In this document: one piece after another, positions 1,194 through 14,234 of the stretch
Layout of the letters: each line of letters opens with the position of its first letter
How positions within the stretch are numbered: the stretch's first letter is position 1
From: Roseburia faecis
GTDB taxonomy: Bacteria; Bacillota; Clostridia; Monoglobales; Monoglobaceae
Direction of reading: 5' to 3'
Assembly: GCA_963632045.1 (NCBI GenBank)
Contig: CAVGTH010000001.1
Coordinates: 1 to 56,096, forward strand
DNA length: 56,096 nt
Made by a program: the position numbers and the translations under genes
The notes under the pieces: model-generated
What the model saw: the letters and a program-made list of their open reading frames with translations, nothing else
Database searches by the model: none
Told to the model about the DNA's origin: nothing

Positions 1194-1991
1194 TTATTCC
1201 TCCGAATCGCTGGCAACAATACCAGCCTTCCGCTTTTCACCGAGTTGCTTCATCACGTAATTATAGGCGTCATCAACTGTACGCCGCTGCACTTGATAAT
1301 AATACATAATAACAGCGAGCAGACGCTTAGTCGGAATTCCGTATTCATTTGCAAGTGCTGTAATGTGGCGTTTCCGTTCTGGGCCAAGCACCCGCACAAA
1401 TTGCGTATAATCCTCAACCGGAAAGACTTTCCATTCATAACGAATGAAATTTCTGAGGCTTCCGGTATTCTCGCCAAACAATTCTTTCGCTTGTTTTTCG
1501 GCCTCTTTTGCAGTCTCTCGTTGTTGACCTTCTGTCAACACGCGCTGCTCTTTGAGCATCGATTCTCTCCAACTTTCAACCTTTTCAGGATCTGTCGGCA
1601 TCGATTTTCCGATTTGGCGGCGCGCCGGGTCATATCTTTCGCGAAATCCATGACGGTCGCTCTCAGTCCAGTCAACTGTATAGTAAGACGTAAACTCAGG
1701 TCTCGTTACAACTGTGAGTTGGTCACGACTTGCATCGTAGTACAGGATGACGTTACCATAAGACCCGTACACGTCTTTATCTCCGGCATCCATATGATTT
1801 CCGAATCTACGAGCTCTTTCAGTATCAACATCGCCGAAATCTTTTCTCACCATTCTGGCAATAAGCTCGTTAATTTTATCTTCTGTAATATCCCCTTTAC
1901 GGAGCATTTTGTTAATATCAGTCGAATATCTGATTTGACCCGAACGCACGATATCTGCGACCGAATCACGAAATTTCTTTGTAAGTTTCAT
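1194..1991 (-). CDS. hypothetical virion-associated protein
   Basis: 265-aa ORF tightly packed in late operon; begins MKLTKKFRDS. Confidence 0.6.
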   Translation of the reverse strand: MKLTKKFRDSVADIVRSGQIRYSTDINKMLRKGDITEDKINELIARMVRKDFGDVDTERARRFGNHMDAGDKDVYGSYGNVILYYDASRDQLTVVTRPEFTSYYTVDWTESDRHGFRERYDPARRQIGKSMPTDPEKVESWRESMLKEQRVLTEGQQRETAKEAEKQAKELFGENTGSLRNFIRYEWKVFPVEDYTQFVRVLGPERKRHITALANEYGIPTKRLLAVIMYYYQVQRRTVDDAYNYVMKQLGEKRKAGIVASDSEE

Positions 1992-1996
1992 AGTTG

Positions 1997-2608
1997 TTAC
2001 CTCTTTATATCACTATCGGGAATATTACCGATTAACTTAATTCCGGTTAAACCAAATGCTTCTTTACCTTCACGAATATCGTCTTCGGTCGCAGCATTTT
2101 CAAGTTTTTCTTTCATAAATCTTTGATAAGGATCATCGGGAATCGGATTCGACGTTACGACAAAGATAGACGGGATTGCTTTTGTCTTAAGAAGTGCCAT
2201 CAAAGAAGAACCGTACGACGTTTGATTCCAGAACATCGCATCCGGGGTATCAAGCATCGTTTTAGACAAATCATAGGTTTTTCCGAATTCACCGATATTG
2301 GCCTGTGTCAACACACCTCTTGTTACCCCGCCTCCGGCAATCTCACCGAGAGTCGAACCAGACGGTGCCTGCTGTTGCTGTCCAATCAGTGTTAGGTAAT
2401 GAGCAATTGCATAACTCATTGCAAGTTCCCAATCGGTACCGAAAATCGAATAGAAAATTCGATCATTCACAAGAGTATAAATTTTTGCAAATGCTTTTTG
2501 CCCTTCCTCTGTAGCAATATATTTTGTAAATTGCGGCATCCAGAAGGTAAAATCATCTGCTGTAAAAGACGGATTTTTACGATCCAGAGTAATTCCGACA
2601 ATTGCCAT
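1997..2608 (-). CDS. DUF4054-like head-tail connector protein
   Basis: F..WMPQF, YAIAHYL and WNQTSYG motifs typical of DUF4054. Confidence 0.75.
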
Positions 2609-2619
2609 TGTATATCACC

Positions 2620-11592: not shown

Positions 11593-11595
11593 CGA

Positions 11596-13506
11596 TTATT
11601 CTCCTTTCGAAACGAGAATCAGGTCTCCATTATTGATGTCGTGAACGATATCCTTAGTAACTCCGGCTTCAAGTTCGCCTTTCGGATTTCGTACAATCAT
11701 ATAATTATCGTCAGCAGTATTGCCAACAATAGTGAAATGTTTATTTGGAACTGTCGAATGCGCAAATACAAATCCGGGTTTAATATCCGTTTCCGTCACC
11801 TTATCAACAGAATCCTTAAATTCTACCGGCATATATTCCATAATAAGTTGTTCGTTTTCTGTTGCACCAGTTGGGAATTTCTGAATTTTAACATTATCAA
11901 ATATCCACTTGACTGCTTCTTGGAAACTACGGAGACCTTTTGCAACCGGCTTACGAGCCGCCACATTAAGTCCGCCGCCATAAAGAATTGTCCATGTACC
12001 ATCTTCCTGCTTCACAAGGTTATGATTTGCAAAAGAAACTCTCTTACGTGCAGGATCGGGCTTTATCTTTTCTTCATCAGATTCGGTTTCTTCATCAGTT
12101 TCTTCTTCAATCTCTTCTTCAACTTCGACGGTTTCTTCGTCATCATCTTCGTCATCATCTTCGTCAAAGTCTTCTTCAACCTCGGTTTTAACATGCTCGT
12201 CCTTACGGCCCTCGTCAATGTTTTTCTTAGCCTCCTCAACAGATTTGTATTCTGTCCCGACCAAGTCAAAATCACGGCGAGTGTATACATCATACATACC
12301 GTCCTCGCGAGTAAGAATCAGATAATCCTTATAACGGATGGCAGGAGTATTTGTCAGAATTCCGGCAGAACCGGCATCATTATCAGGCTGTGCCCAAAGA
12401 GCGTCGTCAAATTCAATGTCAACATCTTCATCAACTTCAATCTCATCTTCCTCTTCGAGTTCGGGAATATGAAGATCGTGCATGCGGCAAATGAATGCAA
12501 GGTCATCTGCTAAATCGACATAAGACAACCACCGAGCAATCGCATCCAATACGTCCTCTTCACCGCCGATTTCAACGAGCTCATCGAGGTTTCTGGGTTC
12601 TTCATCCCAGTCGATTGCAATATCTTCAACAGCCTCCTTAACATCGGCCGTCCCCATTGCTTCAGTCAATTCCGAAAGCAGATTCTTTACTCCGAGTCTT
12701 TCTTTGACAGATTCAAAGGCATCCCACGCTTTATCAGTAGGAATTTCCCAACCGTAGTTGTCATGAACCGTCATATCAAAAGAGTGAGCCGGCGTATTTG
12801 CGTCTTTGATAGAGTCAAACAATACGATCTTGAAATTAGTAGTATTTTTCTTGGCATATGTTTCTGCTTCGGCCTCAGACTTAAATTTCTTAATCATAGG
12901 GTCATCTTTTTCAGACCACGTTTTTCCGCCAACTGTGAGATAAAGATTTTTCTTCGGGTGCATAATAACAAACTTGGAATCCGCAGCATCAAAAACAGAG
13001 ATTCTGAAATTAGTAGTATTTTTCTTGGCATATGTTTCTGCTTCGGCCTCAGACTTAAATTTCTTAATCATAGGGTCATCTTTTTCAGACCACGTTTTTC
13101 CGCCAACTGTGAGATAAAGATTTTTCTTCGGGTGCATAATAACAAACTTGGAATCCGCAGCATCGCCCATCATGCGCTTGCGACCCTCTTCACGAGCCTT
13201 CTTTTTAAGTTCGCCTTCCTTAATATCATCATCCATCTGGTCAATGACCTCTTCAATTTCATCCTTTGATTCAATCACGTTGGTCTCGTACTTCTTTGCT
13301 ATGTCATTCCACTTCTCGTAACGAGCAACGAACTTTCCTTCATCGGTTTTCCGAATCGTACCATGACCGTCCGCCCTTACCCACGTTTCAACGGCATCGA
13401 ACTTGTTCTCACTGATACGGTGAATAAAGGGGACTCCATGAATCCGTACCTTTGTCTCTCTCAGAGTATCTTTCAACTTTCTCGTAATCATCTTGTTTCC
13501 TCCCAT
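11596..13506 (-). CDS. modular virion-associated protein with tandem 58-aa repeat
   Basis: 636-aa ORF upstream of DUF2213; acidic tract; duplicated module; start could be ATG at 13491. Confidence 0.65.
   Translation of the reverse strand: MGGNKMITRKLKDTLRETKVRIHGVPFIHRISENKFDAVETWVRADGHGTIRKTDEGKFVARYEKWNDIAKKYETNVIESKDEIEEVIDQMDDDIKEGELKKKAREEGRKRMMGDAADSKFVIMHPKKNLYLTVGGKTWSEKDDPMIKKFKSEAEAETYAKKNTTNFRISVFDAADSKFVIMHPKKNLYLTVGGKTWSEKDDPMIKKFKSEAEAETYAKKNTTNFKIVLFDSIKDANTPAHSFDMTVHDNYGWEIPTDKAWDAFESVKERLGVKNLLSELTEAMGTADVKEAVEDIAIDWDEEPRNLDELVEIGGEEDVLDAIARWLSYVDLADDLAFICRMHDLHIPELEEEDEIEVDEDVDIEFDDALWAQPDNDAGSAGILTNTPAIRYKDYLILTREDGMYDVYTRRDFDLVGTEYKSVEEAKKNIDEGRKDEHVKTEVEEDFDEDDDEDDDEETVEVEEEIEEETDEETESDEEKIKPDPARKRVSFANHNLVKQEDGTWTILYGGGLNVAARKPVAKGLRSFQEAVKWIFDNVKIQKFPTGATENEQLIMEYMPVEFKDSVDKVTETDIKPGFVFAHSTVPNKHFTIVGNTADDNYMIVRNPKGELEAGVTKDIVHDINNGDLILVSKGE
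12831..13164. repeat. identical 160-bp direct repeat, 174-bp period
   Basis: 12831-12990 equals 13005-13164; encodes DAADSKFVIMHPKK...YAKKNTTNF twice. Confidence 0.95.
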
Positions 13507-14234
13507 AATTTCAAAACATTTTCCATCTCAAGGGGAATATAATCGGCATTTGCAGCAAAATCTGCAAACTCTCTCTTGAACTCATCAAGAGTATACGGGT
13601 CGCCGGCTGCTTCCTCGTTCATGTCATCAGTCAGCATAATTCCGTCATCAGTTTGAATCGCACGTTGATTAAAGGTCTCTTGATAAATCGCAATCGCTTC
13701 ATCGCGAGTCACATCGCGCCCGTCAGGCAGACGATAACCCGTTTCATCAATCGGCTTTCCGGAAATATCCGAGGTCACATCGATATCATCGATGTTCTCG
13801 TATTCCTCATAAACAGTATGACCGCCGTACTCGCTCGGATTCTTATCAACAGAGGTTTTCACCTTGATAGAGTCTTCGAAATGTTCCTCCGTAAAGGGTC
13901 TTTCGTCAACGGGCGTAAGAGCAGCCTCACGCTTGATACGCTCATCGGTTTTCTTGAATTCAACGTTAACCGAGAAATCGTACTCATCCTCCGAACGCTC
14001 ATTCATAACGATAGGGCTGGTTTGGACAACCGTGACACCCTTCGGAGAATCTGGGAAGGTGTTAAAAGCATTGAATGCTTTCATAATTCTCATGCGGGCT
14101 TTCAGGCTTCCGACATGATCTTCAACGATAACACAGTCAAGACGATATTTTTCACCGCCGAGAGAAGCATCGTCATATACATCGACATCGTAGTCGGCAA
14201 GAAAATCTGCTAACTGTTCAACAAGATTATGCAT
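13488..14234 (-). CDS. hypothetical acidic protein
   Basis: 248-aa ORF with RBS, first gene after putative late promoter. Confidence 0.6.
   Translation of the reverse strand: MHNLVEQLADFLADYDVDVYDDASLGGEKYRLDCVIVEDHVGSLKARMRIMKAFNAFNTFPDSPKGVTVVQTSPIVMNERSEDEYDFSVNVEFKKTDERIKREAALTPVDERPFTEEHFEDSIKVKTSVDKNPSEYGGHTVYEEYENIDDIDVTSDISGKPIDETGYRLPDGRDVTRDEAIAIYQETFNQRAIQTDDGIMLTDDMNEEAAGDPYTLDEFKREFADFAANADYIPLEMENVLKLWEETR

Follow-up and report, generated by a model that had tools for sequence, protein, structure and literature searches.

The head proteins of an uncultured phage encoded in a stretch of 56,096 bases from Roseburia faecis assembly GCA_963632045.1 (contig CAVGTH010000001.1, positions 1 to 56,096; called the window in what follows) are punctuated by a short tag, which reads [VILMF]xD[SA] in its strict pattern and is, in the wider sense, a hydrophobic residue, any residue and Asp. 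As read from the sequences, the tag lies at the joints between mini-domains that can be swapped, here called modules. It is likely the cut site of the DUF2213 protease encoded among the same genes, and the strings of modules are likely packed and cut. A preliminary description of the window had quoted such motifs from genes between 1194 and 14234. All of them were found in the genes named there, but tagged genes also lie outside this interval, for example at 49234-49596. Proteins are referred to below by the first coordinate of their gene.

The tag is concentrated in head proteins, as had been proposed. Ten head-region proteins contain 36 strict matches, whereas 10.9±3.2 were expected from within-protein shuffles, and none of 2000 shuffles reached that number. 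The 16 tail and neck proteins are at expectation (12 matches, 10.3 expected) and 42 non-structural proteins hold 25 matches with 16.9 expected (p=0.037). Counted per Asp, matches amount to 0.107 vs 0.048 (Fisher p=0.00055), and the background in 938 open reading frames (ORFs) on other contigs of the assembly is 1.2-fold. Among the residues tried, only the Asp form is enriched in the head set: with the Asp replaced, observed and expected counts were 10 and 10.2 for Glu, 6 and 5.5 for Asn, 4 and 6.5 for Gly, 11 and 9.6 for Lys, and 6 and 6.2 for Thr. About 11 of the 36 matches correspond to the chance expectation. Significant on their own are 5548 (10 vs 2.5, p 0.0003), 11596 (7 vs 1.8, p 0.001), 8897 (4 vs 0.7) and 9928 (5 vs 1.5), and the same shuffle test gave no significant enrichment for 1194, 2620, the capsid, 13488 and both portal halves taken singly.

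Both the pattern and the protein set had been picked after they were seen, and therefore we retested the enrichment on related loci. Of 50 loci, 43 were included, grouped by gene position and dereplicated at 60%; four were left out on purpose, three as too close and one as too distant, and another three had no intact capsid gene in the clustering. The protease fusions contain 158 matches with 37.6 expected (Glu form: 29, with 36.8 expected), the gene that directly follows the capsid gene 63 vs 19.0 (3.3-fold), the scaffold 32 vs 12.2 and the capsid 13 vs 3.5. Tail proteins (105 vs 87.9) and cement (6 vs 8.8) were counted in the same way, as was the conserved gene between protease and scaffold (9441-9950, minus strand, in the window), which is without tag enrichment (7 vs 5.1 in relatives) and without a family match. 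VKDS, IVDS, VKDE, IKDS and VKDA are the commonest forms of the tag in relatives. In the genes before the scaffold, 65 matches stand against 38.3 expected; this enrichment is only 1.7-fold because many of these genes resemble holins, amidase or fibre genes, and the idea that all genes from baseplate to scaffold encode cargo was rejected.

Homologue searches, breakpoints and structural models support the earlier view that the large hypothetical proteins are strings of small swappable domains. Three large proteins, namely 5548, 11596 and the tail of the protease protein, appear as mosaics in homologue searches. High-identity alignments among 104 representative proteins have 507 internal ends, of which 184 are at most four residues away from a strict tag, where 47 were expected; the control with the Glu form gave 13 with 17 expected. 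Relatives show exact insertions, duplications and reorderings of modules between tags, and the sequences show a free exchange of modules that involves 5548 and 11596 as well as the protease tail and stand-alone genes. One example is 5548: between VKDA/VEDA tags, whole modules are added, lost or rearranged in relatives, with both ends constant. Another is the last module of 11596 (amino acids (aa) 566-636, after FKD/S, the slash standing behind the Asp), which is absent from the orthologue of one relative and found instead in the protease tail of that relative after FLDS. Module 229-337 of 5548 resembles module 248-352 of 11596 (E 2e-5). The Asp of the joints is kept in 30/30, 27/27 and 31/31 homologues. 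The residue behind it is less restricted than had been described: Ser and Ala are common, but true joints also read VED/T, VKD/D, VHD/N and IQD/M.

AlphaFold predicted separately folded domains with low global scores for 5548 and the protease protein (pTM 0.28 and 0.36). In 5548 the domains span approximately aa 36-145, 147-220, 229-337, 346-426 and 436-544, with low-confidence stretches at 141-147, 220-225, 335-346 and 425-447. Most joint tags are thus placed in flexible low-confidence linkers, but some matches fall inside folded domains. Very large tagged proteins were also seen after the adaptor gene in relatives (L059:16440-20363, L064:15781-18282 and L021:17259-19205); their matches to LRR and nucleotidyltransferase families were weak and under the cut-off.

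The DUF2213 gene stands between the portal gene and the cement and capsid genes of an E217/Pam3-type head module. H78, S134, H156, R164 and D172 of its product are invariant in 12/12 sequences drawn from this clade, JD001 (Jedunavirus), T1-like phages and Pbunavirus, and the first four of these residues are, by this conservation, likely catalytic. This set of invariant Ser, His and presumed oxyanion Arg residues may resemble the pattern of assemblin/HK97-type serine prohead proteases. The AlphaFold model of the protease domain is strand-rich and of good confidence, and 9B40_G is the only solved relative of the domain detected by sequence. In the capsid, D48 is aligned in 13/13 sequences, with D43 and D48 both present in 9/9 close relatives, and D51 of the portal is found in 18/20 at the start of the conserved core.

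The proposal that this protease cuts after Asp gains support from the invariant D172 and the Asp of the capsid leader, and furthermore from cultured relatives. The TLS capsid has the Edman N-terminus ASDMGIW (PMC11447400), which directly follows Asp27 in the TLS capsid gene. The model of the T1 capsid begins at residue 27 (PMC11945409), and the 319-aa PDB chains 9KMG/9KZJ, which we infer to be the T1 capsid, carry Asp26. The first 65 residues of the E217 capsid are invisible (PMC10329688), and a 382-aa Pbunavirus capsid homologue reads A-M-D64-S65. All three cultured relatives are compatible with a cut that has Asp in front of it and a small residue behind it. Cutting after Asp at the capsid, the portal and the end of the protease domain is therefore, in our judgement, very probable. 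The accessible texts on Pam3 (PMC9942802) and Rogue1 (PMC3496638) and that of PMC4070988 do not state a cut site; for Rogue1, N-terminal peptides of the capsid are reported as missing (PMC3496638). No statement of an Asp cleavage rule for DUF2213 proteases was found in the literature searched, which did not extend to subscription papers and supplements.

In a relative, the module of the stand-alone gene 49234-49596 immediately follows the protease domain, and the wider family of this module carries two kinds of tag. From the best 150 of 365 matches, 147 module copies were aligned from their start, of which 138 had room for a tag. The residue before the module is Asp in 37, Glu in 84 and another residue in 17 of these. 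All ten DUF2213 fusions have Asp, and 84 of the 111 other tagged copies have Glu; we therefore propose two parallel codes. Long proteins follow the same division: 22 with Asp tags contain 112 matches to hydrophobic-x-D-[SA] with 34.6 expected and 41 to the Glu form with 34.9 expected, and 12 with Glu tags contain 30 of the Glu form (12.3 expected) and 17 of the Asp form (13.0 expected). The residue after the tag before this module is mostly Met, and therefore [SA] is too narrow a definition.

A second domain (phrog_12788) was noticed past the window, in the gene at contig positions 60311-61018 (plus strand; L069:4312-5019), where it begins after FDD. Copies in related phages (2/33 genomes) follow FND and IND, so that Asp is found in 3/3 copies from DUF2213 phages. 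The same domain has a Glu leader in 7/7 named large phages, five of which are Kyanoviridae, and all 29 distinct leaders scored in marine sequences end in Glu (52 of 80 loci scored; 28 were missed by the pattern). This switch between Asp and Glu on identical modules links the family to the T4 and phiKZ systems and suggests that they draw on one pool of small proteins carried in the capsid.

Scaffolds and post-capsid proteins have a common N-terminal hairpin (profile-profile probability 95.8%). A profile built from 17 post-capsid leaders scored at least 6 bits in 15/21 scaffolds and in 1/144 tail proteins; the reverse direction was weaker, with 3/21 at 6 bits and 10/21 at 3 bits. A tag occurs within the first 22 aa of nine of the 21 post-capsid proteins, with 1.7 expected (tail: 14/144, with 12.2 expected). 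The shared hairpin leader is a candidate address label.

Taken together, we propose the following course of events. The strings would be built into the prohead by way of their constant ends, either the hairpin common with the scaffold or the fusion to the protease. The protease, probably through Ser134, His78 and His156, would release itself at IVD/S and then cut the remaining proteins. Cutting after Asp would trim capsid, portal and scaffold and split the strings into proteins of 6-14 kDa. Leaders and scaffold pieces would exit, and the folded modules would stay behind as internal proteins, comparable to IPI-III of T4; the modules are probably packaged inside the head. By analogy with T4, it is quite conceivable, if not yet probable, that some modules are injected along with the DNA and counter host defences; this would be the likeliest reason for their fast turnover. 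Somewhat more tentatively, the system may be a plug-in payload of gut phages, in which any tagged domain of 50-120 aa can be recombined into a carrier string, packed, cut and injected as an anti-defence factor, from a pool common with Glu-tag phages and with modules re-tagged to the resident protease.

That modules are ejected into the host as effectors had been suggested before, and no result was obtained in its support. Among 23 window modules and proteins searched against Pfam and PHROG, nothing was above the cut-off except phrog_2423, a PHROG of unknown function, and no window module reached a Pfam cut-off. In 78 slot proteins of relatives, Pfam detected only DUF2213, ferritin-like, DUF5661, DUF7717, amidase and Ig domains. 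LPD and known effector domains were found neither in the window proteins nor, at E 1e-4, in these 78 proteins; LPD25 is present above the cut-off in one of 40 distant proteins, the Asp-tagged relative P0376. Zincin metallopeptidase and MuF domains had no Pfam match among the 47 window proteins scanned. The lead that 49234-49596 is the anti-Thoeris protein Tad5 failed and was rejected (PF25190: 13.4 bits with a cut-off of 27, 12.9 in one relative and 0/40 family members at E 0.01). A match of the same module to PDB 9W4D/9W4C (E 0.005-0.016, 'fusion protein'), for which no paper was found, was taken as chance. In the ESM Atlas, aa 146-222 of 5548 had no usable match and 49234 matched only unnamed clusters at 0.82. 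The whole 5548 model had no Foldseek match at E 0.001; a weak 60-column match to the T4 antitoxin Dmd (5HY3_B, E 0.53, target TM 0.67) does not identify the module. Residues 147-220 and 346-426 of 5548 have a common predicted strand-strand-helix-strand-strand layout.

Several observations weigh against cutting of packed strings at the tags. Of the 507 breakpoints, 323 lie away from a strict tag, and the breakpoints, like the sequences, are not independent of one another. Predicted secondary structure contains IRDS54 and ITDA116 of the protease domain and VFDS198, VVDA276, LKDA368 and LIDA492 of 5548; ITDA116 and VFDS198 are conserved and yet in predicted helices or strands. Judged by the models, these six are probably not cut sites. 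Moreover, VKDA32 of 5548 is a real swap joint, yet modelled in a helix. The TLS band runs at about 29 kDa, below what a 27-residue trim explains, and the TLS authors surmised a cut of 45 residues at AYE (PMC11447400). The E217 model starts one residue past the predicted start, and absent density in cryo-electron microscopy may reflect disorder. The residue two before the Asp varies by family, being Lys in T1-like phages, Ala in Pbunavirus and hydrophobic here, and therefore the data from relatives transfer only for the Asp; for the phage in the window the evidence consists of sequence and predicted models. Hand-made patterns served as seeds of the leader profiles, and the window leaders score 5.1 (5548) and 4.6 (8897) bits, so the shared leader is a lead only. 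The two proposed codes are read from the tags of the module copies. Finally, no module matched a recognised effector family in Pfam or PHROG, in the window or in the slot proteins of relatives.

Other explanations account for part of these data. The tag could be a protease site in strings that serve as disposable core or scaffold, like gp22, gp67 and gp68 of T4, and are chopped and expelled. T4 gp21 destroys core proteins (PMC5694885), and a fragment of the homologous Pa193 gp24 has been described as scaffold (PMC11456595); the proteins here are acidic (10-12% Asp), 11596 has a long Asp/Glu tract and the modules are without known enzyme families. We consider this fate unlikely: the pieces between tags are predicted to be folded domains with few internal tags, the same modules occur as stand-alone genes with leaders of 5-20 aa, a separate short scaffold-like gene is present, and the modules turn over fast. 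It is improbable, too, that the tag is a recombination handle or linker, a short common DNA sequence enabling in-frame swaps in strings that work uncut. Shared joint sequence would make breakpoints cluster at tags without any cutting, as they do, but the Asp is also fixed in the capsid and portal leaders, where no modules are swapped, the capsids of relatives begin after Asp, and the choice between Asp and Glu tracks the whole protein and the DUF2213 fusion.

Very improbable, in our estimate, is that real sites exist only in capsid, portal, scaffold and protease end and that the tags of the hypothetical proteins arise from acidic composition and chance. It is true that chance would yield about a third of the window matches, that 1194, 2620 and 13488 show no enrichment on their own and that the non-structural proteins reach 1.5-fold. 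However, the shuffles preserve composition, 5548 and 11596 are enriched alone, the hold-out post-capsid slot is enriched 3.3-fold and the joint Asp is kept throughout the homologues counted above. For 5548, 11596 and the protease tail this explanation is largely excluded; the weaker candidates 1194, 13488 and 40944 stand outside that statement.

We judge the proposed cutting of module strings in the head to be a real variant of motif-directed head maturation, new in the Asp rule and the DUF2213 protease compared with the known Glu systems; the proteases of T4, phiKZ and SPN3US cut after Glu (PMC5694885). As for T4 gp21, CTS and the internal proteins (IPI-III, Alt), an acidic motif would be read by a head protease and short leaders removed, and the motif is common to capsid, core and internal proteins (PMC5694885), which here is read from the genes. 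Two modules that carry Asp here occur elsewhere with a T4-like Glu leader. Unlike in T4, the residue is Asp and not Glu, the protease is of the DUF2213 family, the phage is an E217/Pam3-type myophage of about 70 kb, and the putative cargo consists of multi-module strings, some of them fused to the protease. The proposed system resembles that of phiKZ gp175 and SPN3US gp245, where a protease that also cleaves itself processes the capsid, the portal and many internal proteins at a motif (PMC5694885). In contrast, those proteases are Glu-specific and act on long propeptides of large single proteins, whereas here domains of 50-120 aa are strung together; ejection was argued there from mutants, and here it is a conjecture.

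TLS gp33 of the T1-like phages and Pa193 gp24 of Pbunavirus belong to the same protease family and have Asp motifs in their tails, and N-terminal processing of the capsid is reported or suspected in both groups. Their tail is a scaffold and not a module string, and the position two before the Asp differs. In their accessible text these papers do not assign the cut to Asp, and the TLS authors propose AYE. Polyvalent proteins (Iyer et al. 2017, PMC5512222) are likewise multi-domain proteins for which packaging and processing have been proposed, but they carry recognised enzymes and their own metallopeptidase, whereas the modules here are tiny and mostly unclassified. DUF2213 is mentioned 0 times in the main text of that paper, a count that does not cover its external supplements.

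From a cut after Asp, mature N-termini can be predicted and looked for in virion proteomics data that already exist. The tags furthermore divide unannotated head proteins into domain units and point to candidate internal proteins, some of them encoded away from the head operon. If the payload system is true, unknown injected effectors could be searched for by their tags, and the tags could serve to load proteins into capsids.

Table 1. Tagged proteins and related features of the window. A slash follows the Asp of a tag.
Feature	Position	Strand	Remarks
DUF2213 head-maturation protease domain (aa 1-172)	11077..11592	-	PF09979 E 1.4e-42, 145.9 bits vs cut-off 22; PHROG 530 E 3e-49
IVD/S tag closing the protease domain	11074..11085	-	D172 invariant in 12/12 and 51/51 homologues
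Protease tail: modules aa 173-279, 280-388, 389-435 (phrog_2423), 440-554	9928..11076	-	Low-confidence linkers 281-285, 389-396, 433-442 (AlphaFold)
636-aa module string	11596..13506	-	Tandem-duplicated 58-aa module between MGD/AAD/S, VFD/AAD/S, LFD/SIKD/A
248-aa protein, central FED/S, weaker candidate	13488..14234	-	FDDS at the matching place in 3/3 close relatives; not enriched alone
Acidic scaffold-like protein, hairpin leader, four tags	8897..9370	-	18.5% Asp; scaffold role suggested by position and composition
Cement protein (capsid exterior), tag-free, internal negative control	8409..8900	-	PF22758
Major capsid protein, leader tags IGD/A (41-44), IHD/S (46-49)	7295..8389	-	PF09950; predicted mature start Ser49
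544-aa module string: hairpin leader and five domains	5548..7182	-	VKD/A- and VED/A-type joints; pTM 0.28
Two-module protein: leader MRD/S, Cys-rich module, QRD/S, ferritin/rubrerythrin-like half	2620..3006	-	Both modules recur in other tagged proteins
265-aa protein, 9-aa leader ending FRD/S, weaker candidate	1194..1991	-	Tag kept in both of the 2 relatives found; not enriched alone
Portal IND/A tag, border of variable N-terminal part and conserved core	25058..25069	-	Asp aligned in 18/20 related portals
Stand-alone 120-aa gene, leader ending IQD/M	49234..49596	+	Module fused behind DUF2213 in other phages
261-aa gene with conserved MYD/S, VMD/S, uncertain candidate	40944..41729	+	3 vs 0.62 expected; homologues in 3/33 related genomes

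The ferritin/rubrerythrin-like half domain (2623-2808, minus strand) recurs in tagged proteins of many relatives. DUF2213 proteases were matched in 1,585 of 50,697 GenBank phage records, including T1-like, Jedunavirus and Pbunavirus therapy phages.

The contig is 68,583 bases long and has 42.7% G+C; the window covers its first 56,096 bases. The assembly in which it is binned has 2.0 Mb and 50.3% G+C. The genes of the window are those of an E217/Pam3-type myophage, with portal (Pfam: PF06381), DUF2213 protease, cement (Pfam: PF22758), capsid (Pfam: PF09950), DUF4054 adaptor and baseplate; the large terminase, recognised by eye, is located past the window end. The genomes of close relatives are 70-74 kb. 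A comparison of the window with the other contigs of the assembly gave no match of spacer length (longest 22 bases). This contig (C1) and a 65-kb contig (C3) each have 43% G+C within the 50% assembly; C1 has probably been binned wrongly, and C3 could be a second phage.

A group I intron (RF00028, 79.8 bits; 23977-24282, minus strand) interrupts the portal gene, which is uninterrupted there in relatives. In 27007-29970 (plus strand), an AAA_5 ATPase is encoded beside a 541-aa protein that by eye resembles a metallopeptidase/vWA partner. The early region contains a class 3 lipase gene (Pfam: PF01764; 43628-44359, plus strand), and genes for tRNA-Phe (49634-49709) and tRNA-Gln (50390-50465) are found on the plus strand. 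An ORF running from 55421 past 56096, which includes a masked stretch, resembles by eye a GIY-YIG homing endonuclease and is followed by thyX-, deaminase- and dUTPase-like genes.

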